Shown one piece after another: positions 44,450 through 56,536 of a stretch of DNA of 64,000 nucleotides; positions within the stretch are counted from its first letter, which is position 1, and the number at the start of each line of letters is the position of its first letter. Below the pieces are notes generated by a model. That model searched no databases. It was not told the origin of the DNA and saw only the letters and a program-made list of their open reading frames with translations. The stretch is from NCBI GenBank assembly GCA_035532835.1, contig DATKQG010000059.1, positions 6,581 to 70,580 of the forward strand. The letters are read 5' to 3'. This DNA is from Candidatus Dormiibacterota bacterium. Its GTDB lineage: Bacteria > Vulcanimicrobiota > Vulcanimicrobiia > Vulcanimicrobiales > Vulcanimicrobiaceae. Position numbers and translations under genes: made by a program.

Positions 44450-45961
44450 TTAAAGCGGTCGCTTGTGCGATAGCGTAAGCGTGACCTTCGTGCTTTGTGC
44501 GGTCGATGCGACTTCGAAGTTGCTGCTGCACGCGCGCATGATCGGGATCCCGCGGCCCCGTTCCGGCCGCGGGGTGAAGGCCTTCCAATGCCCCTTGCTG
44601 GTTATGGTAACGTGCGATGCATCCGGTCCCTTGAGATAGTCGACTTCGAAGCACGCGCCCGCGGCGTCGCTGCCGTGCTCGATAGCGTTGGCGATGGCTT
44701 CGCCCGCCGCGCAGATCGCGTCGTCGGTAAACTCTTGCGAGTGGACGGTGGCGAGGGCGTTACGCAGAGCCTCTCGCGCGATGCCGGCGGACGACGGCAG
44801 GCTGCTATATACCCAGTGGCCGTCAACATGCGACTCCGACGCATTATGGAGCGCGAGCGTCGCGACATCGTCCGTGTTCGCGATGGTTTGAAAGATGGCT
44901 TCGTGCAGGCCGTCTGCGCTCGGGGGCCCGTCACGGGCCAAGCGTTCCAGCGTAACCAAGAGTTCGCGCTCCCCCTCGATGATATCGCGCCTATATTCGA
45001 GCAATCCGTCGGTATAGAGATAGCATGTGGTTCCCGGGGTGAGGGTAACGGTCCATTCGGGCGACGCCGGCGTCATACCGAGGCCGAGCAGCAGACCGCC
45101 CGCGGGCAGCACGAAGGTCTTTCCCGATGGCGATAGCAGAACGGGGTGCGGATGCCCCGCGGAAGCGTACCGCAAGATTTTCGATTGCGGGTCGTAGATG
45201 CCGACGATCGCCGTGGCCATTCCCAATCCTTGGGACGTAACGACCCCGTCGACGTAGTTGAGGAGCGCGGTGGGCGAATTAGTGCCCGGCGCCGCCGAGC
45301 GTATCGCACGCGCGATCTGGCTCATCGAAACCGCCGCCTCGAGCCCGTGGCCGGTGACGTCTCCCACCGACACGCCGATCATGCCGTTTCCGATTTCGAA
45401 CGCGTCGTACCAATCGCCGCCAACCTCGGCTTCGTCGCTCGCGGGCCGATAGGCCGCGTCGAACGAGAGGCCTTCGACGCGCATCAAGCGATCGGGAAGC
45501 AGCGCTTGCTGGAGGCGTTGAGAGACGTGATAGTGATGCGCTAACTGCTGCGATTGCTCGAGCGCCATCGAGATGAGCGTCGTCAATACGCCGGCTACGT
45601 GCGGGCTATCGGACGCGGCGCCGGCATGACGCCGCTCCGAGCCTAATACGAAAGTCCCGATCGCGCGGCCGCCGACGGTGAGCGGTTCGGTTGAGAGCGT
45701 GGATTGGCCGATGACGGCCAGCGGGTCCTCCAAGAGCGCGGAGAGAGCCGCCGTTCGGGCGCCGCCCCATCGAGCTTCGTCGGCGCATGCGAATGCGGCG
45801 GGCGCGGCGCCGTGCCCGTGCAGGTAGATCGAGCAGAAATCGGCGACGGAGCCGGCGCAGAGGTCGCAGATGTTTGCCAGCAGAGCCAACGGCTCTCTGG
45901 GAGTCGATAGAGCGGACAAGTGCCCCTCTCCGAGAGGCCGGTCAAAGAGACCCCTAAGCAT
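44450..45961 (-). CDS. Fused GAF-like / PP2C (SpoIIE) phosphatase / RsbW-like HATPase protein
   Basis: GGDWYDAFEIGNGMIGVSVGDVTGHGLEAAVSMSQ and LYTDGLLE (PP2C/SpoIIE). C-terminal AAGEAIANAIEHGS...RGRGIPIM (anti-sigma kinase-like). N-terminal ~150 aa looks like a divergent GAF domain. Confidence 0.82.
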   Translation of the reverse strand: MLRGLFDRPLGEGHLSALSTPREPLALLANICDLCAGSVADFCSIYLHGHGAAPAAFACADEARWGGARTAALSALLEDPLAVIGQSTLSTEPLTVGGRAIGTFVLGSERRHAGAASDSPHVAGVLTTLISMALEQSQQLAHHYHVSQRLQQALLPDRLMRVEGLSFDAAYRPASDEAEVGGDWYDAFEIGNGMIGVSVGDVTGHGLEAAVSMSQIARAIRSAAPGTNSPTALLNYVDGVVTSQGLGMATAIVGIYDPQSKILRYASAGHPHPVLLSPSGKTFVLPAGGLLLGLGMTPASPEWTVTLTPGTTCYLYTDGLLEYRRDIIEGERELLVTLERLARDGPPSADGLHEAIFQTIANTDDVATLALHNASESHVDGHWVYSSLPSSAGIAREALRNALATVHSQEFTDDAICAAGEAIANAIEHGSDAAGACFEVDYLKGPDASHVTITSKGHWKAFTPRPERGRGIPIMRACSSNFEVASTAQSTKVTLTLSHKRPL

Positions 45962-46059
45962 AGATCCTCGCTCGGCGGTTCAACCCACTAAAGTCTGCCC
46001 CGTTCCGGGGAATCTAAACCTTGGGGCCAGCTCGCCTGCCCGTTTAGGAAATCGGTTCG

Positions 46060-49000
46060 GTGGAGAAGAAGCAGACGTCTTCATCGGCTTTCGGAGGCAC
46101 GATTTGCGTCATGTCTAGCGCTACGGTACCCTCACGCAGCACTAAAAAGCCGCCCAAGGGCGGCCTGCCGCAAACCCATCTACTGGCTGCGTTGCGATCG
46201 TTTAGAGACGGCGACTTTTCGACGCGCCTTCCGAATAGTTTCACCGCGATCGACGGCGAAATCGCGGCGGCGTTCAACGAATGCGTCGAGCGTAACGAGC
46301 GGTTGGCCGAAGAACTCATTCGCATAAGTCACGTTGTCGGGCGCGAAGGCTTGATTGGGAAACGCGCGTCGCTCGCGAGCGCGAAAGGCGCTTGGCGCGG
46401 CAGCCTCGACTCGGTCAACCAACTCATCGACGATCTCGTGTTCCCGATGTCCGAGGCCGGCCGCGTACTCGGGGCGGTTGCCAACGGCGATCTCTCGCAG
46501 CGTATGCCGCTCGAAAACGACGGCCGCGAGCTCAAGGGCGAATTTCTGCGCTCGAGCCGTACGATCAACACGATGGTCGATCGTCTCAATGCCTTCGCGT
46601 CCGAGGTCACGCGCGTCGCGCGCGAGGTCGGCTCCGAAGGAAAGCTGGGCGGGCAGGCCTTGGTGAAAGGCGTCGCGGGAACGTGGAAAGACCTTACCGA
46701 TTCCGTGAACACGATGGCCGGAAATCTCACGTCGCAGGTCCGCAACATCGCCGAAGTCACCACCGCCGTCGCTCACGGCGATCTTTCGAAGAAAATCACG
46801 GTCGAAGCGCGCGGCGAAATCCGTCAGCTCAAGGGCACGATCAATACGATGGTCGATCAGCTCAACGCCTTTGCTTCGGAAGTGACCCGCGTCGCGCGTG
46901 AAGTCGGATCGGAAGGCGCCCTGGGCGGCCAAGCGCAGGTTGCGGGCGTCGCCGGAACGTGGAAGGACCTTACCGACTCCGTCAACACGATGGCCGGAAA
47001 TCTCACGGCGCAGGTTCGTAACATCGCGGAGGTTACCACGGCCGTCGCGCGCGGAGATCTCTCCAAAAAAATCACGGTCGACGTGCGCGGCGAGATTGCC
47101 GAACTCAAAGACACGATCAACACGATGGTCGATCAGCTCAACGGGTTTGCTTCGGAGGTGACGCGCGTCGCGCGCGAAGTCGGTTCGGAAGGCAAACTCG
47201 GAGGCCAGGCCGAGGTTGAAGGCGTCGCGGGAACGTGGAAAGACCTAACCGACTCGGTCAATACGATGGCCGGCAATTTGACGGCACAGGTGCGCAACAT
47301 CGCCGACGTTACGACCGCCGTCGCCCGCGGCGACCTTTCGAAGAAAATTACGGTCGACGTCCGCGGCGAAATTCTGGAACTGAAAATTACCGTGAACACC
47401 ATGGTGGACCAGCTCAACGCCTTCGCCTCGGAGGTGACGCGCGTCGCCCGCGAAGTGGGTTCCGAAGGTAAACTCGGCGGACAAGCCGAGGTTGAAGGCG
47501 TCGCCGGTACTTGGAAAGACTTAACCGATTCGGTCAACACGATGGCCGGTAACTTGACGGCCCAAGTCCGCAACATCGCCGACGTGACTACCGCCGTCGC
47601 TCGCGGCGACCTCTCGAAGAAAATCACCGTCGACGTTCGCGGCGAGATCTTCGAGCTCAAGAACACCATCAATACGATGGTCGATCAGCTCAACGCGTTT
47701 GCGTCGGAAGTGACGCGCGTTGCGCGCGAGGTCGGATCCGAAGGCAAACTCGGCGGACAGGCGGACGTGCGCGGCGTCAGCGGCACCTGGAAGGACCTGA
47801 CGGACTCCGTCAACGTCATGGCCGGTAACCTCACCTCGCAGGTTCGCAACATTGCCGACGTGACGACCGCCGTCGCAAACGGCGACCTCTCGAAAAAGAT
47901 TACCGTGCAGGTGCGCGGCGAGATTCTCGAGCTTAAAGATACGATCAACGTCATGGTCGATCAGCTCAACGCCTTCGCTTCCGAGGTGACGCGCGTCGCG
48001 CGCGAGGTGGGCTCCGAGGGGCGCTTAGGCGGCCAAGCCGAGGTCAAAGGCGTGAGCGGAACGTGGAAAGATCTCACCGACTCGGTGAATTTCATGGCCT
48101 CGAACCTCACCTCGCAAGTGCGCAACATCGCCGACGTGACGACGGCCGTTGCGAACGGCGACCTATCCAAAAAAATCACGGTCGACGTACGCGGCGAAAT
48201 TCTAGAACTCAAAGACACGATCAACACGATGGTCGATCAGCTCAACGCCTTCGCCTCCGAAGTGACGCGCGTCGCGCGCGAGGTGGGCTCCGAGGGGAAC
48301 CTCGGCGGGCAGGCCGACGTGAAGGGCGTGAGCGGAACGTGGAAAGATCTCACCGATTCGGTGAACTTTATGGCATCGAACCTCACCTCGCAAGTGCGTA
48401 ACATCGCCTCGGTAACGACGGCCGTCGCCAACGGGGACCTTTCGAAGAAAATCACCGTCGACGTGCGCGGCGAGATTTCGGAATTAAAAAACACGATCAA
48501 CACGATGGTCGATCAACTCAACGCTTTCGCCTCCGAAGTGACGCGCGTCGCGCGCGAGGTCGGATCCGAGGGCATCCTCGGCGGCCAGGCGCAAGTCGGC
48601 GGCGTGAGCGGCACGTGGAAGGATCTCACCGATTCGGTGAACTTCATGGCGTCGAACCTCACCTCGCAAGTGCGTAACATCGCGAAGGTGACGACCGCGG
48701 TTGCCAACGGAGACCTTTCGAAGAAGATTACGGTCGACGTCCGGGGCGAAATCGCGGAGCTGAAAGATACCATCAACGTCATGGTCGACCAGCTCAATGC
48801 CTTTGCGTCGGAAGTAACGCGCGTGGCGCGCGAGGTGGGTTCCGAGGGTATCCTCGGCGGGCAGGCCCACGTGCAGGGCGTCAGCGGCGTATGGAAAGAC
48901 CTCACCGACAACGTGAACTCGATGGCGGCGAACCTTACCAACCAGGTGCGCGGCATCGCCAAGGTCGTTACCGGCGTCGCCAACGGCGATCTCAAACGTA

Positions 49001-52000
49001 AGCTCACGCTGCAGGCTCGCGGTGAGATCGCGGAATTGGCAGAAACGATCAACGGCATGATCGATACGCTCGCGACCTTCGCCGACCAAGTTACCACGGT
49101 GGCGCGCGAGGTCGGCTTCGAAGGAAAACTGGGCGGCCAGGCGGCCGTACCGAGTGCGGCAGGGTTGTGGCGCGGGCTTACGGACAGCGTCAACCAACTC
49201 GCGGCGCAGCTTACCGACCAGATCCGCGCCATCTCCGAGGTGGCGACCGCCGTGACCAAGGGCGATCTCTCGCGGACGATCGAAGTCGAGGCGCGCGGCG
49301 AAGTCGGCGAACTCACGCGTAACGTCAACGAGATGATTCAGAATCTCCGCGACACGACGCGTAAGAATACCGAGCAAGATTGGTTTAAGAGTAACCTCGC
49401 GCGATTCACCTCGATGCTGCAGGGGCAGCGCGATATCACTGCGGTGACGCAGTTGATCATGTCGGAGATCGTTCCGCTCGTCAACGCGAAGGTCGGCGGC
49501 TTCTATATCAGCGATGTGAGCGGCAACGAGCCGACGTTGCTCCTGATGGCCGGCTACGCGCTGCCTCGCAACCGTCGCTCCAAGCGGGCGATTGCGTTCG
49601 GTGAGGGGCTCGTCGGCCAAGCCGCGGTCGAGCGACAGAGATTGTTGCTCAACGAAGTCCCGGCCGAGTATCTGCAAATGACCTCCGGCATCGGCCAGGC
49701 GGCGCTCTGCTCGGTCGTCGTGTTCCCGATCCTATTTGAGGGCGAGATCAAAGCCGTCATCGAGTTAGGGTCGCTCGAACGCTTCAGCGAAATCCATCTG
49801 TTGTTTTTGGACCAGTTGATGCAATCGATCGGCGTCATGCTCAACACGATTTCCGCATCGATGCGTACCGAGGAGTTGCTCAAGCAGTCGCAATCGCTCA
49901 CCGGCGAACTCCAGAGCCAACAGCTCGAACTCAAACAGACCAACGACGAGTTGGAAGAAAAGGCTCGCCTGTTGCAAGAGCGCAACGCCGAAGTCGAGCG
50001 TAGAACGCGCGAAATCGAAGAGGCCCGTACGGAACTCGAAGGCAAGGCCGAGCAGCTCTCTTTGACCTCGAAGTACAAGTCGCAGTTCTTGGCAAACATG
50101 TCGCACGAACTGCGAACCCCGTTGAATAGCCTGCTCATCCTCTCGAAGCAGCTTGCCGACAACAGCGATGGAAATATGACCGGGCGGCAGGTGGAGTTCG
50201 CGCAGACGATTCGCGCGGCGGGTTCGGATCTACTCACCCTCATCAACGATATTCTCGACCTCTCAAAGATCGAATCGGGAACGACCGCCATCGACTTTCA
50301 AGAAGTCACATTCGACGAAATTGAAAACGAAGTACGGCGAACGTTCGGGCAAATCGCCGCGGATAAGAACCTGCAGTTCGTCGTTCGGCGCGACCGGGAT
50401 CTTTCCGACACGATCGTTACCGATCCCACGCGCCTGCAGCAAGTCCTCAAAAACTTGCTATCGAACGCGTTTAAGTTCACCACGGTGGGTTCGGTGACGC
50501 TTCACATCGGCGTCGATCGCAGCAGTCGCATTCTGGCGGTTCCCGGCCCGGCGATATTTTTCGCGGTTTCGGACACCGGCATCGGGATCTCACCCGACAA
50601 ACACGGCGTCATCTTCGAGGCGTTCCAGCAAGCCGATATGGGAACGTCGCGCAAATTCGGGGGCACGGGGTTGGGCTTGGCCATCAGCCGGGAAATTGCG
50701 GGACTTCTGGGCGGCGAAATAACGGTAGATAGCGCCGCCGATATCGGCAGCACGTTCACGCTCTATCACCCCGCGCAGCGCAACGCGCCGCGAGCGGACA
50801 CGGCGCAGCTCGCGCCGCCGGCCATCGATCGGATCGAAGCCATGCTGGCGAAGGCGCCGTCGGAAGCGGCCAGGCGTTCCGACGAGGCCATCGGGCGTGC
50901 CGACGACCGATACAATATCGACGTGGACGATAAGATCGTCTTGGTGATCGAAGACGATCCGACGTTCGCGGGCCTCTTGGCCGGCTTTGCGACCGAGCGC
51001 GGATTTAGAACCTTGGTGGCGCACTCGGGGCATGAGGCGCTCGAGATGGCGAACAAGTTCATGCCCGATGCGATTACCCTGGATATCGGGCTTGCCGACA
51101 TGGACGGCTGGCAACTGCTCGAGCAGCTCAAATCGTCGGCCGCGACCGCGCATATTCCCGTCCACGTCATCTCGGGCGACGAGCACCAGCAACGCGCGCT
51201 CGAATCCGGCGCGATCGCTCACTTGCAGAAGCCCGTTTCGGAGGAGGCGCTCGTCGATACGTTCGATCGCCTGTTGGGTTTTGCGGACAGTCGCGGCAAG
51301 GACGTTTTGGTGGTCGAAGACGACCTTACGCAGCTCAACGCGATGGTGAACCTCATCGGCACCGGCGAGATGAACGTTACGGCGGTATCGAGCGCCCGAG
51401 CGGCGTTCGAGGCGATCGAGGGCAACACGTTCGACTGCGTCATCGTGGATTTGGGCTTGCCGGATATGTCGGGCGAGAAATTCATCGAGACGTTCCGGGC
51501 CAAGCCGGGGCATGAAACCACGCCGATCATCGTCTACACGGCGCGCGATTTACAGCGGGAAGAAGAGGCGCGCTTGCGCCGCATTTCTTCAGCGGTGGTG
51601 GTAAAAGACGGGCGCGCGCCGGAGCGCTTGCTCGACGAGGTCAATTTCTTTCTCCATCGCGTGGAGGCCGATCTGCCGTCGACACGGCGACCCTCTCGCG
51701 AGGCCGCGCGCGACTCGCTACAGGGGCGGCGGGTACTAATCGTGGACGACGACGCGCGCAATATCTTTGCGCTCGAGGCGGCGTTACGCGCCGAGGGAAT
51801 GGACGTGCTGGCCGCCGAGAGCGGCCGGCAGGGTATCGCCAGCCTCCAAACACGCTCCGACGTCGATATCGTCCTGATGGATATCATGATGCCGGAGATG
51901 GACGGGTTCGAGACCATTCGCAGGATCCGCGCGGACGATCGCATCGCTTCGATCCCGATTATCGCGCTCACAGCGAAGGCGATGAAGGGCGACCGCGAGG

Positions 52001-52092
52001 CGTGCATCGCCGCCGGCGCATCCGAATACGTCAGTAAGCCGGTGGACGTCGATCAGCTTCGCTCGCTATTGCAGCTATGGTTGAGCAAGTAG
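46060..52092 (+). CDS. Soluble poly-HAMP hybrid sensor histidine kinase (HAMP array - GAF - HisKA - HATPase_c - REC - REC - REC)
   Basis: 2010-aa ORF. HAMP-like N-terminus ([10 protein letters not shown]...EIAAAFN). About 11 units of 92 aa with consensus [84 protein letters not shown] domain. H-box SHELRTPLN (His codon 50104-50106). N/G boxes ([25 protein letters not shown]). Three receivers with acceptor Asp codons at 51082, 51448 and 51880. No TM segment seen. Alternative start ATG 46111, 13 nt after GGAGG. Confidence 0.9.
46561..49320 (+). repeat. In-frame tandem array of ten 276-bp units (92-aa HAMP pairs) inside the kinase gene
   Basis: The TINTMVD-encoding motif recurs at 46561, 46837, 47113, 47389, 47665, 47941, 48217, 48493 and 48769. 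The last array unit at 49045 is a diverged copy, and a further diverged copy begins at 49321, just past the array end. All sit in an exact 276-bp phase. A degenerate unit precedes the array from about 46285. Confidence 0.9.
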
Positions 52093-52949
52093 ACGCTCTA
52101 ACGGGGGCTCTCCCGGCGCTGGACCTGCGGCGCGATGAGCTCGCCGATATAGAGCTGCAGTTGCTCATCGACGCCCTGCTGCGCTACGGCGGGTACGATC
52201 TGCGCAGTATGAATCAGGCGATACTGCGCCGGCGTATCGCCGACGTCATGCGCGCGCAGTCGATCGCAACGATTTCAGGCTTGCAGGACCGGCTTCTTCA
52301 CGACGAACGGACGCTTGCCTCGTTTTTGGTGATGATGTCCGGGGGCGCGTCGCAGCTCTTCCACGATCCGCCGTTTTTGAAAGCGTTCGCGTTGCACGTC
52401 GTCCCGTTGCTGCAAACCTACTCGTTCATCCGCATCTGGGTACCCGGAAGCGGTATCGGCGCAAACGCCTTCTCGCTGGCCGCGATTTTGGACGAAGCCG
52501 GAATTCTCGATCGTTCGGTCATTTACGCGACGACCCTCAACGACGTTGCCGCTTCGGTGGCCAAGGCCGGGGTTTATTCGCACGCCTCCGAAGCCGACCT
52601 TACCGCATCGATGCGGCAAGCCGGGCTCGTATCTCCGGCGTCGCGTTTCTTCGAGACGACAAAGCTGCAGGCGTTTCCGGTGGATCGGTTACGGCAAAGC
52701 GTGATGTTCGCGCGGCATAGCCCGGCCGAAGACGGCCCGATCAACGAGTTTCACGCAATCGTTGCGCGCGGCATTTTTCCGTCGCTCAACGGCGCCATCC
52801 AGTACCGTCTCCATCGGCTGGCGTACGACAGCCTTTTGCACTTGGGATTTTTGTGCCTGGGTCAACGCGAATCGCTGGCCGGTACCGTGCACGAGCGGGC
52901 ATTCCGTAACGTGGTTCCCGGCCAACCCATCTATCGAAAGATGCGCTAA
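52077..52949 (+). CDS. CheR-like methyltransferase-fold protein with divergent SAM-binding motifs
   Basis: CheR_N-like helix bundle ([26 protein letters not shown]), [10 protein letters not shown] (cf. FFRdp), [18 protein letters not shown] (cf. iWsagCStGEEpYSlA), ATTLND (cf. ATDid), LGQRESL (cf. lG.sEsl). ATG overlaps the kinase 3' end by 16 nt. Confidence 0.75.
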
Positions 52950-52954
52950 CGCCG

Positions 52955-53311
52955 CTACGCCGCCGCGGCGTGCGAAACTTGAAGCACCCTCTCGAGCTGC
53001 GTGATGTGGAACACGCGCGCGATCGTTCCCGATGGCGGAATAATCACGCGTAACATGCCGCTCGAGCGTTCGTGCAGCCGCACGAGCGCCTTGAGGCCGC
53101 TGGAATCGATGTAGCCGCAACGCGTCAGATCGATCGTCAGGGCTTGCCCGTCGATCGCGACCTGCTCGATGTATTCTACAAAATGCTTGCTGGTGGCGAT
53201 GTCGATGTCGCAACTGGCGAACACGATGCGCTCGTTTTCCGCACACCGGTGTGAAAAATGGTCGATGAGGCCTGGGGTTAAGGTGGGATCGTATGCCATG
53301 GGTTTCTCCAA
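52955..53311 (-). CDS. STAS domain anti-sigma-factor antagonist (SpoIIAA/RsbV-like)
   Basis: 118 aa. LTIDLTRCGYIDSSGLKALVRL carries the DSSG phospho-serine motif. C-terminal helix ARVFHITQLERVL. Confidence 0.8.
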   Translation of the reverse strand: MEKPMAYDPTLTPGLIDHFSHRCAENERIVFASCDIDIATSKHFVEYIEQVAIDGQALTIDLTRCGYIDSSGLKALVRLHERSSGMLRVIIPPSGTIARVFHITQLERVLQVSHAAAA

Positions 53312-53374
53312 ATCTGTCCGGTCATTATGGCGCGACGGGTTTGAGGAAACAAGTTGGCGCGAATCGGCTCGCGG

Positions 53375-53833
53375 CTACTCGCCGGCGCTGCTTGGCTGGG
53401 GGTAGTGCCGCGTGTTATGCCCTGGCATTGACGGTTGGCGAGACTCATCCAAAAAGGAACGCATCGCTGCGACCAACGGGCCTTGAACGTCGCCGAGCGG
53501 ATGATTGCGCAGGAGTGTAGCCGGGCTGGAATCGCCGAGGCGTGGATTGCTGGAATGGAACCAGGCGCGGATTACTTCCGCGTCGTGCGACTGCGCGATC
53601 GTGCTCGCCAGCTGGAGGGCAAAGCGAAGAACGTGCGGCCGTTGGGGGCGGCGGTCGATCATCCACTGCTGGACCGCGCGGGTCTCCGTGACGCCTGCGA
53701 TCTCGGCGACCATCGAAAGCCCGAGCAATCCTACCAGTTCGCGGACCGCTCGGCCGATGGGTAGGCCGATCGCGTGGCTGTGTGCTTGGTACTCGAATTG
53801 GGCCGATCGGAATGCCCCTTGCTCGTCGATCAT
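53375..53833 (-). CDS. XRE-like HTH / DUF2384-like (MbcA/ParS antitoxin-type) protein
   Basis: Start set to ATG 53833 to avoid overlap with the upstream lipoprotein gene. HTH-like LSMVAEIAGVTETRAVQQWM. C-terminal AWFHSSNPRLGDSSPATLLRNHPLGDVQGPLVAAMRSF resembles the DUF2384 toxin-binding domain. Assignment is from memory of the motif. Confidence 0.5.
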   Translation of the reverse strand: MIDEQGAFRSAQFEYQAHSHAIGLPIGRAVRELVGLLGLSMVAEIAGVTETRAVQQWMIDRRPQRPHVLRFALQLASTIAQSHDAEVIRAWFHSSNPRLGDSSPATLLRNHPLGDVQGPLVAAMRSFLDESRQPSMPGHNTRHYPQPSSAGE

Positions 53834-53889
53834 GCCATACGATATACCACCGAAGAACCCGGGATAAACGCCACCGTGTAGCGCTGCGT

Positions 53890-54255
53890 TCAGACCTTCA
53901 CGGAGCGCGAAGATTCGAGATTTCCGCGAAAATCGATGAAGCGTACCGTGAGTGCGGCGTGCTGGTGGGGATGCGTTTGGAGCCACGCCGAACGCCAAGC
54001 GCGTAGCGTTGCAGCCTTAAGCGCGTTCTCGTCATCCTCGCTGATCGAGTAGAGCTGGTTGAGATCGACGGAGACGTCGACCGTGGTCCCGTGGAAGTCG
54101 AACCCGACGATGACCCCGCTATAGGTTTTTTGAAGGCGTGCAAGCTGCGTCCGTTCGCTCGCATGACGAACTTGCTGCGGCGACGGCGGTGCCGAACAAG
54201 CCGCGACGCTCAAGAGCACCGCGAACGCGAAAGATGCCGCCCGGCTAAGTCGCAT
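53890..54255 (-). CDS. Hypothetical lipoprotein
   Basis: Start trimmed to ATG 54255. MRLSRAASFAFAVLLSVAACSAPP has a lipobox (VAAC). No family recognised. Confidence 0.55.
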   Translation of the reverse strand: MRLSRAASFAFAVLLSVAACSAPPSPQQVRHASERTQLARLQKTYSGVIVGFDFHGTTVDVSVDLNQLYSISEDDENALKAATLRAWRSAWLQTHPHQHAALTVRFIDFRGNLESSRSVKV

Positions 54256-54348
54256 GGCCTGGGGCTTCGGCCACCGTGGCCGGCTACCATCTTCGACGTG
54301 CAACGCGGCGTACACGAATCGGACATATCGGCGGCTTAGCATGCCTTC

Positions 54349-54951
54349 ATGGATGGAATTGCATGGGCACAGAGCGCGATGGTCGCGGCACGGACGCGGC
54401 TGGACATTGCTACCGGTAATCTCGCCAACGTTTCAACGAATGGCTTTGCCCGTCTGGTAGCGCGCGGTTCGCTGACGGCCCGCGGGGTCGTGATTCGATC
54501 GCGCGCGCAACTCGGGCACGGCGGGTTACGCCCGACCGGACGCGCGTACGATCTCGCGATCGTCGGCGATGGAAACTTTCGCGTGCGTGAACTCTCGGGG
54601 CGAATCGTACGCACGCGCAACGGTGCATTCGAGCGCGACGTTCGCGGCCATCTCCACGACGATGCCGGGCGGGTGCTGCTCGGTACGAACGGAGCACTGC
54701 GCGTCCCGGATGGCGCGACTTTCGATGCGGTCGGGCGACTGATGCTGCACGGAACGCCAATCGGGCGCGTCCCGCTTCCGCGCGGGAGCAGCCTTCGAGC
54801 GGGCTTTATCGAGACGGCAAACGTGAACGCGATCGGCGAGATGGTCGACGTGTTGGCAGCGGAGCGTTCGTACGAAAGCGCCGAAAAAGTGATGAGCGCG
54901 ATTGACGGCACGCGGCAGAAAGCCGCGAACGACGTCGCGAGGCTCAAATAA
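54349..54951 (+). CDS. flgF: Flagellar basal-body rod protein (FlgF-like)
   Basis: N-terminal rod motif DIATGNLANVSTNGF and C-terminal ERSYESAEKVMSAIDGT (rod/hook C-terminal heptad motif). 200 aa. Confidence 0.8.
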   Translation: MDGIAWAQSAMVAARTRLDIATGNLANVSTNGFARLVARGSLTARGVVIRSRAQLGHGGLRPTGRAYDLAIVGDGNFRVRELSGRIVRTRNGAFERDVRGHLHDDAGRVLLGTNGALRVPDGATFDAVGRLMLHGTPIGRVPLPRGSSLRAGFIETANVNAIGEMVDVLAAERSYESAEKVMSAIDGTRQKAANDVARLK

Positions 54952-55679
54952 TGGATCGCGCGCTCTACGCCGCCGCGACCGGAATGGCCGCTCAACAACG
55001 CAATCTCGACGTCGTTTCCGATAACCTCGCAAATGCCGACGTCGCCGGATTCAAGGGCTCGGTCGCGACGTTCGAAGTGTTGGCCGCGCCCGGCGAGCGC
55101 GGCGTGGGAACCGCCGTTACGGGCCAGCACGCCATCTTCACGCAGGGCAAGCTCATGAAGAGTCCGGGCGCGTTCGATCTCGCCATCGACGGGCCGGGAT
55201 TCTTCACCGTCGCCGACGGCAAGGGGCGTAAGGGGTACACGCGCGATGGCGCGTTTTCGCGCGCACCGGATGGTTCGCTCCGCAACGCGCAGGGCTGGCG
55301 GCTCGACGGCATTCGCATTCCGCAGGATGCGCTCGGCGCGCGGGTGGAGAGCGACGGGCGCCTGATCGTCACCACGGCCGGCGGCAAAACAACGATGGGG
55401 CGCGTTCGCCTTGCGGAGTTTGCCGCGCCCGAGGCGCTGCAGAGCGTTGGGGGCACGCTCTTCGCCGCTACGAGTGCGTCGGGTCGTGCGCGCACGATCG
55501 AGGCGGGCGGCCCCAACGCCCCGCAGATTCGATTCGGTATGCTCGAGCAGTCCAACGTCTCGATCGTGGAATCGATGATGGAGATCATGGCCGCGCAACG
55601 AGCGTACGAAGCGAACGCTAAAGGCGTCCAAGCGGCCGACGAAATGCTGCGAATCGCCAACAACTTGCAACGTGGATAA
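54951..55679 (+). CDS. flgG: Flagellar distal rod protein FlgG
   Basis: MDRALYAAATGMAAQQRNLDVVSDNLANADVAGFK ... IMAAQRAYEANAKGVQAADEMLRIANNL. Confidence 0.88.
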   Translation: MDRALYAAATGMAAQQRNLDVVSDNLANADVAGFKGSVATFEVLAAPGERGVGTAVTGQHAIFTQGKLMKSPGAFDLAIDGPGFFTVADGKGRKGYTRDGAFSRAPDGSLRNAQGWRLDGIRIPQDALGARVESDGRLIVTTAGGKTTMGRVRLAEFAAPEALQSVGGTLFAATSASGRARTIEAGGPNAPQIRFGMLEQSNVSIVESMMEIMAAQRAYEANAKGVQAADEMLRIANNLQRG

Positions 55680-55869
55680 CGCGGCAGCCGGCGCGGTAGG
55701 ACGCGCGTGCGAATCGTTGCTTCTCGCGCAAATGCTGGCGCCGATGACGAAGTCGTGGGGCGAATTCGGTTCCCTCGGCACGCAGACCGTCGCCGACGCG
55801 ATTGCAGGCCGCGATACCGGCGGCTTTGCCGCCGCAATCGCTCGCGCATTGGAAGCGCGCCATGACTGA
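55672..55869 (+). CDS. Small rod-binding (FlgJ N-terminal-like) protein, tentative
   Basis: 65 aa. CESLLLAQMLAPM resembles the rod-binding motif fE..fl.qmlk.M. Overlaps the flgG stop and the fliA start. Confidence 0.5.
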   Translation: MDNAAAGAVGRACESLLLAQMLAPMTKSWGEFGSLGTQTVADAIAGRDTGGFAAAIARALEARHD

Positions 55870-56536
55870 AAGCGAACGCGAAGCGCAGATCCGGCGGCTA
55901 CTGCCGCTCGTACGCGCGATCGCGCGCCGAGTGCAGCGCGTGGTCCCTACCATGGATTTGGACGATCTGATCGGCGACGGCAGCATCGGGTTGGTCCGCG
56001 CGGTCGATGCCTTCGATCCCGAGCGCGGAGCCTCGCTCGAGCACTATGCCAAGCATTTGATTGCAGGAACGATGCTCAACGGCATTCGACGCATGGATCC
56101 GGTCCCGGAACGCGTGCGCCGCGCCGTGCGCGACGGCGAAAATGCACGATATCGTCAGGCGGTGGAGGCCGGTACGATGCCGGCGCCCGACGCGTTCGAA
56201 CGCACGCGCCCGGCGCTTCGCCGGGCGGCCATGGTGGCGTATCGCGTGCAGCCGCTCTCGCTCGATTGCGCGTTGCCCGAGCGCGAGCGGCTCGCATGCG
56301 ACTGGAGCCGCGACCCGGCGAACATCGTCGCCGAACGCAGTAGCGCGCACGAATTGCGCATCCATCTACGCGGCCTTCCGCCACGCCATCAAACCCTTCT
56401 TGCGCTGCATTATTTTGCGGACGGACCGCTGGCGAGAATAGGCTCGCGTATGGGCATATCCGCACAGCGCGCCTCGCAGTTGCACGTCGCGGCGATCGCG
56501 CGCCTGCGCAAGCGGTATCATGCTCCGTCGCGTTGA
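55862..56536 (+). CDS. fliA: Flagellar sigma factor (sigma-28, FliA/WhiG family)
   Basis: Start trimmed to ATG 55862. Region 2 (DLDDLIGDGSIGLVRAVDAFDPERGASLEHYAKHLIAGTMLNGIRR) and region 4 HTH (LHYFADGPLARIGSRMGISAQRASQLHVAAIARLR). Flagellar context. Confidence 0.85.
   Translation: MTESEREAQIRRLLPLVRAIARRVQRVVPTMDLDDLIGDGSIGLVRAVDAFDPERGASLEHYAKHLIAGTMLNGIRRMDPVPERVRRAVRDGENARYRQAVEAGTMPAPDAFERTRPALRRAAMVAYRVQPLSLDCALPERERLACDWSRDPANIVAERSSAHELRIHLRGLPPRHQTLLALHYFADGPLARIGSRMGISAQRASQLHVAAIARLRKRYHAPSR

Follow-up and report, generated by a model that had tools for sequence, protein, structure and literature searches.

A predicted soluble poly-HAMP hybrid histidine kinase with eleven di-HAMP modules, near-identical in protein and recoded in DNA

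Kinase-associated poly-HAMP arrays have been described in 4778 kinases, from across the bacteria and from fungi and Amoebozoa as well (PMC13446029). They are built from di-HAMP modules that each pair a non-canonical type C with a canonical type D HAMP; the first position is taken by a D1 HAMP, the modules are nearly identical within an array, and the arrays precede GAF-DHp-CA-REC in soluble proteins (PMC13446029). The crystal structures 9trk and 9trj are 6-HAMP and 4-HAMP segments of one such protein, Myxococcus xanthus AskA (PMC13446029). Streptomyces coelicolor OsaA (SCO5748), a cytosolic hybrid kinase of 1829 residues with more than 10 HAMPs, functions in osmoadaptation together with OsaB and OsaC (PMC9739842). 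Kinase-type poly-HAMP arrays also occur in fungi (PMC13446029), where CaNik1p carries four HAMP pairs of 92 residues plus one single HAMP, and the group III kinases carry five to six repeats (PMC3848655). Here we describe a kinase gene with a tandem array of 92-residue HAMP-pair repeats. It lies in a stretch of 64,000 nucleotides (hereafter the window; GCA_035532835.1, contig DATKQG010000059.1, positions 6,581 to 70,580) deposited as Candidatus Dormiibacterota bacterium.

The array is very probably the sensor/relay rod of a soluble hybrid kinase of the AskA/AskB/OsaA type, which is the bacterial counterpart of the fungal group III kinases. We regard it as an old array kept by purifying selection while synonymous sites drifted normally, with occasional turnover of interior units. 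The kinase gene is the single long open reading frame (ORF) of the region. It starts with a GTG codon (codon 18 is an in-frame ATG), and the GC content is ∼0.61–0.69 throughout the window. Pfam analysis of the product returned HAMP in 10 stretches and HAMP_2 in 11 stretches, then GAF_2, HisKA, HATPase_c and three Response_reg domains; residues 1–1087 are almost wholly HAMP, and no Pfam domain was found ahead of the HAMPs. In a Kyte-Doolittle scan of the kinase with 19-residue windows, values of 1.6 or above occurred only within the GAF core (residues 1207–1234), and the maximum in the first 200 residues was 0.98. Since no membrane-helix-like segment was found outside the GAF core, the product is predicted to be a soluble hybrid histidine kinase. 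The parts of the gene, with units delimited by a profile hidden Markov model (HMM) built from units U1–U9, are as follows.

46060..52092, plus strand: poly-HAMP hybrid histidine kinase gene, 2010 residues (ORF, translation and Pfam).
46060..46269, plus strand: N-terminal leader and first HAMP, residues 1–70 (matches of the unit HMM start only at residue 71–73).
46270..46560, plus strand: degenerate first di-HAMP module, unit 0, 97 residues, with 5 extra codons (unit HMM).
46561..48768, plus strand: units U1–U8, eight near-identical 92-residue di-HAMP modules of 276 bp each (unit HMM, 177–185 bits each).
48769..49044, plus strand: unit U9, the penultimate module, marked by a signature of its own (positional orthologue in all relatives).
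49045..49320, plus strand: unit U10, the last and most divergent module, whose output helix runs on into 49321 onward (unit comparison and DNA tree).
49429..49842, plus strand: GAF domain, residues 1124–1261 (Pfam GAF_2, E 4.5e-17).
50077..50778, plus strand: kinase core, HisKA (residues 1340–1407) and HATPase_c (residues 1454–1573) (Pfam, E 9.8e-19 and 6.3e-25).
50926..52083, plus strand: three receiver (REC) domains (Pfam Response_reg, 3 stretches, E 3.4e-65).

Cuts at every 276 bp over 46561–49320 gave ten in-frame units of 92 residues (U1–U10) with no insertion or deletion, exactly the boundaries given in a preliminary description of this stretch. Tandem Repeats Finder returned a period of 276 with 8.8 copies, 81% matches and 0% indels, and the frame stays open in translation across all units of the array. 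The preliminary description had also placed a possible further unit at 46285–46560. A true eleventh module does exist there, but it is degenerate, begins at ∼46270 and is out of the 276-bp phase: read in strict phase it is only ∼5% identical to the other units and looks unrelated because it is 97 and not 92 residues long. The unit HMM aligned it at residues 73–155 (E 7e-12, envelope 71–160), and the module takes in residues 71–167. In total the HMM found 11 di-HAMP modules, ten of them spaced exactly 92 residues; the first spacing of 97 residues recurs in relatives. Residues 1–70 probably correspond to the D1 first-position HAMP of the kinase family, and the protein match of relatives to the kinase begins near residue 4–40. 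As each 92-residue unit is one non-canonical and one canonical HAMP, the sequence pattern gives an estimated ∼23 HAMPs (1 + 2 × 11), an odd count that fits the odd HAMP counts reported for the family (31 in AskB).

Whole-protein Pfam matches to SpoIIID (3.7e-11), GatB_Yqey, Laminin_II and GLE1 over residues 200–970 were rejected as kinase domains, none of them having a single individually significant stretch. We read the E-values of SpoIIID, GatB_Yqey, Laminin_II and the like as the sum of a weak match in each repeat and not as real domains. The “partial SpoIIID/HTH-like domains” (HTH, helix-turn-helix) reported for AskA/AskB (PMC7643160) may be of the same origin.

Judged from its sequence, the protein is a member of the described kinase-associated poly-HAMP family and agrees with it in every feature that can be read at that level. 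A phmmer search of three units against the PDB returned 9trk at E 3.5e-90 and 9trj at 1e-39 (both “histidine kinase, Gcn4p”); the sole other sequence match was Aer2 3vol (E 0.0016). The window units align with 9trk gaplessly over 158 residues with scattered differences only, and the degenerate first module also aligns to the N-terminal region of AskA. The HAMP types (C plus D, as in AskA) were read from the 9trk alignment rather than from recomputed C/D clusters. The domain order (array, GAF_2, HisKA, HATPase_c and three Response_reg) is that of the family, and the hydropathy scan and Pfam agree with a soluble protein. The preliminary description had proposed a comparison with bacterial poly-HAMP proteins as a check, but these were absent from its interpretation, which likened the consensus to fungal group III kinases. 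The fungal likeness is real and published (PMC3848655; PMC13446029), and the 5–6 fungal units that it gave agree with the five to six repeats in the literature (PMC3848655); the bacterial proteins, a described family with a solved structure (9trk), are closer than the fungal kinases.

A scan with one genome per species found at least 599 related stretches (599 of the first 600 candidates), and the best 80 were inspected. These 80 are 56–78% identical to the window kinase over the full length and come from Cyanobacteria, Acidobacteriota, Proteobacteria, Bacteroidota, Planctomycetota, Verrucomicrobiota, Actinomycetota, Myxococcota and other groups. Every one of the 80 inspected loci has an array with exact 92-residue spacing and 7–17 unit-HMM hits, most often 12; clean units number 6–15 in the 81 arrays scored. 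The 11 modules of the window are ordinary, about the mode of the family. Interior units are 81–91% identical between arrays of different phyla, far above the level seen in the rest of the kinase or in a housekeeping dehydrogenase. The closest named kinase relatives among the matches listed are metagenome-assembled genomes (MAGs) of Eremiobacterota/Baltobacteraceae. The housekeeping dehydrogenase of the window is 72–74% identical to Eremiobacterota/Baltobacteraceae MAGs and at most 55% to the next phyla. MAGs of this group also give the best matches for neighbouring genes, and the host is assigned to the Eremiobacterota (Baltobacteraceae-like).

Pairwise comparison of U1–U8 gave protein identities of 85–96% and DNA identities of 73–86%, with a synonymous divergence (dS) of 0.54 to above 2 and a non-synonymous divergence (dN) of 0.02–0.12 (Nei-Gojobori method with Jukes-Cantor correction on 92 codons). 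Synonymous divergence is thus well above non-synonymous divergence, which is the outcome that the dN/dS check proposed earlier was to decide. For the adjacent units 47113–47388 and 47389–47664, a count by hand had given about 4 replacements and roughly 35 synonymous differences; we found 4 non-synonymous and 36 synonymous codon differences (dS 1.08, dN 0.022). U9 and U10 are more divergent than U1–U8. U10 is 55–62% identical to the other units of the window and 88–92% identical to the last unit of relatives.

The kinase was also compared with its counterpart in a sister species of the same genus (G001). The array and N-terminal rates were taken from the colinear joined contigs of G001, and the rate of the GAF-kinase-receiver part from a separate alignment.

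U1–U8 vs. sister species: dS 0.49, dN 0.0042, dN/dS 0.009.
U9–U10 vs. sister species: dS 0.42, dN 0.0024, dN/dS 0.006.
N-terminal part vs. sister species: dS 0.54, dN 0.038, dN/dS 0.07.
GAF-kinase-receiver part vs. sister species: dS 0.43, dN 0.027, dN/dS 0.063.

The synonymous rate of the array is normal, and replacements are removed ∼7–10 times more strongly than in the rest of the protein. The very strong protein constraint claimed for the repeats is borne out by these ratios, 0.006–0.009 in the array vs. 0.06–0.07 elsewhere in the gene.

The DNA of the units was also compared with what chance would produce. In columns with the same amino acid, the codon was identical in 54% of unit pairs vs. 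41–49% expected from independent draws (with codon frequencies taken from the window, from the remainder of the gene or from the array), and inter-unit DNA identity was 74.3% vs. 71% with every codon redrawn at random. Between genera of the same bacterial family, the non-repeat part of the kinase has a dS of 1.15–1.74 and an excess codon identity of 0.01–0.15, and most unit pairs of the window fall in this between-genus range of excess codon identity. Synonymous sites are near saturation, with a small excess of codon identity and no deficit. In the 81 arrays, the mean excess codon identity ranged from 0.07 to 0.57 (median 0.23) and was never negative; the window has 0.15.

The preliminary description had offered selection against recombination-prone identical DNA as one possible cause of the heavy recoding. 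Synonymous differences would be favoured since identical 276-bp repeats recombine or slip, and the DNA would be driven apart faster or further than by drift. The low inter-unit DNA identity (73–86%) despite 85–96% protein identity, and a longest shared exact stretch of just 43 bp, are what this explanation would lead one to expect. However, shared codons are above and not below the random level (0.54 vs. 0.41–0.49), and identical runs of at least 20 nt were more numerous (39) than under independent draws (7.1) or with codons shuffled within columns (26.6), only 1.2% of column shuffles matching or passing the observed number. The longest identical run, 43 nt, likewise exceeded both null models (27 and 35, respectively). 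The interruptions of homology between units are no more evenly spaced than chance would give, and if anything they tend the other way. Nor does the array show a raised dS in the comparison with the sister species (0.49 vs. 0.43 in the rest of the gene). In addition, relatives L060 (Vulcaniibacterium), L071 and L077 (Nannocystis) hold unit pairs that are 97–99% identical in DNA; these are recent duplications or conversions, unlike anything in the window, and they are tolerated. From the excess of shared codons, the long runs and the normal dS we concluded that age and purifying selection suffice and that recoding selection is unsupported; we regard active recoding as highly improbable.

The history of the units was followed in a tree built from the DNA of 77 units, which represent eight genomes of the same bacterial family, with support from the Shimodaira-Hasegawa-like approximate likelihood ratio test (SH-aLRT). 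Last units from different genomes cluster with one another, and a clade with support 95 unites the penultimate units; the best match of U9 elsewhere is always a penultimate unit. At the other end, the nearest named relative supplies the partners of two window units, its unit 2 pairing with U2 (97) and its unit 1 with U1. Across phyla, the last two units and the degenerate first module can be recognised by their signatures. Positional orthology holds for the first, second, penultimate and last units. The unit phylogeny suggested earlier as a check therefore gave a divided answer: the end units are old and hold their positions, and some interior units group by genome. The genome-wise groups are window U3 with U4 and U6 with U7 and U8 (SH-aLRT 94; the U3/U4 pairing is weak), units 1–6 of G014, two sets of units of L043, and units 3 and 5 of G017. 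U6–U8, and weakly U3/U4, share a younger ancestry, so not every unit is individually ancient. The great age earlier proposed for the array stands for the array as such, the same 92-residue module being present in 80 further loci from many phyla, and fails for these younger units.

The grouping by genome raises the possibility that turnover is the main cause of the likeness, i.e., that interior near-identity owes much to duplication and loss or to gene conversion in a slow concerted evolution. Besides the tree groups just listed, the numbers of clean units vary within the one bacterial family (9, 10 and 11), the excess codon identity among U6, U7 and U8 is 0.29–0.49 vs. a baseline of 0.01–0.15, with the values for U6–U7 (0.49) and U7–U8 (0.40) close to the 0.54 found between sister species, and runs of at least 20 nt surpass the column-shuffle null in nearly all shuffles, as given above. 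Nevertheless, most unit pairs lie at the between-genus saturation baseline, constraint alone is extreme in the sister-species comparison (dN/dS 0.009), the end units are stable positional orthologues across phyla, and interior units show no clear clustering by genome at the protein level. We therefore consider turnover very unlikely as the main cause; it supplements the explanation by old age and purifying selection and does not replace it. In our reading the ends of the array are stable and the interior is subject to slow birth, death or conversion, the last interior events in the window genome being about as old as the genus or older.

A further observation concerns two relatives from different phyla, L026 (Terracidiphilus, Acidobacteriota) and L035 (Bradyrhizobium), whose arrays correspond in unit order. 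Five of their seven interior units match best on the diagonal, interior protein identity is 0.91 on the diagonal and 0.86 off it, and both arrays share a higher-order alternation of 184 residues between two unit flavours. This match suggests either transfer between soil phyla or a very deep positional conservation.

A collapsed or inflated number of units, produced by a short-read assembler, was also considered. In three draft relatives (G001, G002 and G008) contig ends that fall within the array split the gene, as such an error might lead one to expect. In the window, however, units share at most 43 identical bases, this being the longest exact repeat within the array, and 28 of the 2978 31-mers of the array recur (<1%); with only such short exact repeats, a short-read assembler would find unique paths. 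The frame is open through all units. In G001 the kinase gene is split over two contigs (C230 and C6) that share an overlap of exactly 141 nt and follow window positions 45663–48533 and 48393–52391 colinearly at 89–90% DNA identity, with no unit gained or lost. The colinearity supports the unit count, and an assembly artefact is almost certainly not the explanation. The high inter-unit dS, the 43-bp longest repeat and the colinear sister gene together uphold the earlier statement that the array is neither a recent duplication nor an artefact of assembly.

Some irregularities of the draft genomes may be recorded here. The contig breaks of G001, G002 and G008 occur in the array though units are only ∼80% identical, and the 141-nt overlap of G001 resembles a k-mer-sized contig end. 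In L015 (G012, contig C10) the orthologous ORF (1827 residues) starts inside the first module, and a separate upstream frame of 201 residues matches residues 38–143; this split reflects a frameshift, which is either genuine or introduced in assembly.

Several points weigh against the reading of an old relay rod under purifying selection. The helix-rotation relay is taken from AskA structures and models and is not established even for AskA. At the protein level, the interior units are as close to units of other genomes as to their own neighbours, and their genome-wise clustering in the DNA tree may be partly compositional. The dS estimates on 92 codons are noisy and near saturation, so the ages are relative only, and short-read assemblies are the only basis of the unit count.

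Homology to the AskA crystal structures predicts for the array a dimeric, continuous four-helix coiled-coil rod in which neighbouring canonical and non-canonical HAMPs would adopt opposite rotational states. A conformational change could then be relayed from module to module into the GAF domain, the DHp/CA core and the three receivers. Every module would be bound to the same fold and to tight junctions (e.g., GTWKDLT and LGGQA, with their conserved Trp and Gly), which offers a rationale for the ∼7–10 times more efficient removal of replacements. Synonymous sites have drifted at an ordinary rate and lie close to randomness, and this is enough to leave a near-identical protein encoded by recoded DNA. 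In our reading interior modules are from time to time duplicated, lost or converted, which accounts for the 9–11 clean units in the same bacterial family and for the younger U6–U8.

The genes flanking the kinase are given below.

44450..45961, minus strand: PP2C phosphatase (SpoIIE) and anti-sigma-type kinase domain (HATPase_c_2) protein, 503 residues, divergent and upstream (Pfam).
52077..52949, plus strand: CheR-like protein, 290 residues (Pfam CheR and CheR_N).
52955..53311, minus strand: STAS-domain protein of the anti-sigma-factor antagonist type, 118 residues (Pfam STAS, E 2.5e-11).

The CheR-like gene is co-transcribed and translationally coupled with the kinase, its start overlapping the kinase stop by 16 nt. 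In the window and in its nearest relative (L025) the S-adenosylmethionine (SAM)-binding motif of the CheR-like protein is degenerate, and ARGIFPSL stands in place of CRNVLIYF. In other genera of the same bacterial family ACSTGED is kept and CRNVLIYF is not; the copies in Cyanobacteria and Acidobacteriota have IWHAGCSTGEEVYS and CRNVLIYF, with the canonical GCSTGEE kept. The lost SAM motifs suggest that the protein is probably a binding-only pseudo-enzyme in the window lineage. Among 84 related loci (L013–L096), the gene directly downstream of the kinase is REC-first (OsaB-like) in 62, CheR-like in 16, and neither or mis-parsed in 6. The CheR-like genes are on the same strand as the kinase and occur in at least seven phylum-level groups: Eremiobacterota, Cyanobacteria, Acidobacteriota (Pyrinomonadaceae), Fibrobacterota, Gemmatimonadota, Syntrophobacterales and Cellvibrionaceae. 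A tblastn search over the window with OsaB-like receivers found only the kinase's own receivers, placed at 50926–51252 and 51718–52083, and no adjoining OsaB-like gene.

Post-translational modification of HAMPs has been raised as a possibility, with CheR unmentioned (PMC13446029). The linkage described here would fit a poly-HAMP rod that a dedicated CheR-type protein uses as its substrate or as a scaffold to dock on, adding to the kinase a methylation layer like that of methyl-accepting chemotaxis proteins (MCPs). We consider this proposal unlikely. If it were true and modules were modified or bound singly, there would be a second reason for the extreme conservation of each module.

The upstream PP2C/HATPase_c_2 gene is retained at this position in the same bacterial family, homologues of its PP2C part lie upstream in seven Streptomyces loci, and the gene is reminiscent of OsaC. 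The first 194 residues of its product gave no Pfam match, even at E 0.1. An HsbR-like identity was rejected for this protein since Pfam detected no N-terminal receiver domain. Downstream, the interval 52955–56536 holds the STAS gene, an Xre/MbcA-ParS_C-like gene, two genes for flagellar rod proteins of the FlgF/FlgG type and one for a sigma-70-family factor. The genes from STAS to sigma factor, together with the upstream PP2C/anti-sigma kinase, look as if they might form a partner-switching module linking the kinase to a flagellar sigma factor. In the other related loci, no STAS gene was found beside the kinase.

The kinase is one further member of a described family several thousand strong, found here in the little-studied Eremiobacterota. 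What is added to the structural work on the family (PMC13446029) is that most modules, here and in the 80 arrays, are near synonymous saturation; module near-identity is therefore kept mainly by purifying selection and not by recent copying. Few repeat units of bacterial signalling proteins are as constrained as the di-HAMP module, and the constraint argues that every position of the rod matters for function. The CheR linkage offers a lead for what acts on the rod. To our knowledge, osmotic or developmental roles have been described only for OsaA, AskA/AskB and the fungal kinases.

The nearest described counterparts are Myxococcus AskA (MXAN_0712) and AskB, which like the window kinase are soluble, lack an N-terminal sensor domain (PMC13446029; PMC7643160) and consist of an N-terminal HAMP, 92-residue di-HAMP modules, GAF, DHp/CA and receiver(s). 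The window kinase differs from them in its phylum (Eremiobacterota-like), in having three receivers and, relative to AskB, in the number of HAMPs (∼23 vs. 31 reported). Its downstream partner is CheR-like with degenerate motifs and not the REC-first protein that follows the kinase in 62 of the 84 family loci. Roles in development and in the ambruticin response are known only for the Myxococcus proteins.

The Streptomyces relatives, inferred from architecture and neighbours to be osaA orthologues, have 10–11 units of period 92. Their loci resemble the window in the PP2C-containing gene upstream, OsaC being an anti-sigma-type regulator; one of the related loci (L082) has a REC plus coiled-coil gene downstream, which is OsaB-like. 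The Streptomyces units are far more diverged from each other, at ∼70% protein identity. Chemoreceptor poly-HAMP arrays and multi-HAMP receptors (Aer2 and FrzCD) share with this family alternating canonical and non-canonical HAMPs in a continuous coiled-coil rod. However, the chemoreceptor arrays are of types A/B, have an MCP output and arose independently (PMC13446029), and their similarity to the window is marginal.

The fungal group III kinases (Nik1/Os-1/TcsC/Bos1), compared here by their published descriptions, are also soluble proteins with concatenated 92-residue HAMP pairs, and the consensus motif of the preliminary description is the same module as theirs. The period of 92 residues is common to both, with 11 modules in the window vs. 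5–6 in the fungi. The fungal proteins are eukaryotic, lack GAF and have a single receiver (PMC3848655; PMC7643160; and established knowledge), whereas the window kinase is bacterial, has GAF and three receivers, and unlike them is encoded within a bacterial operon structure.

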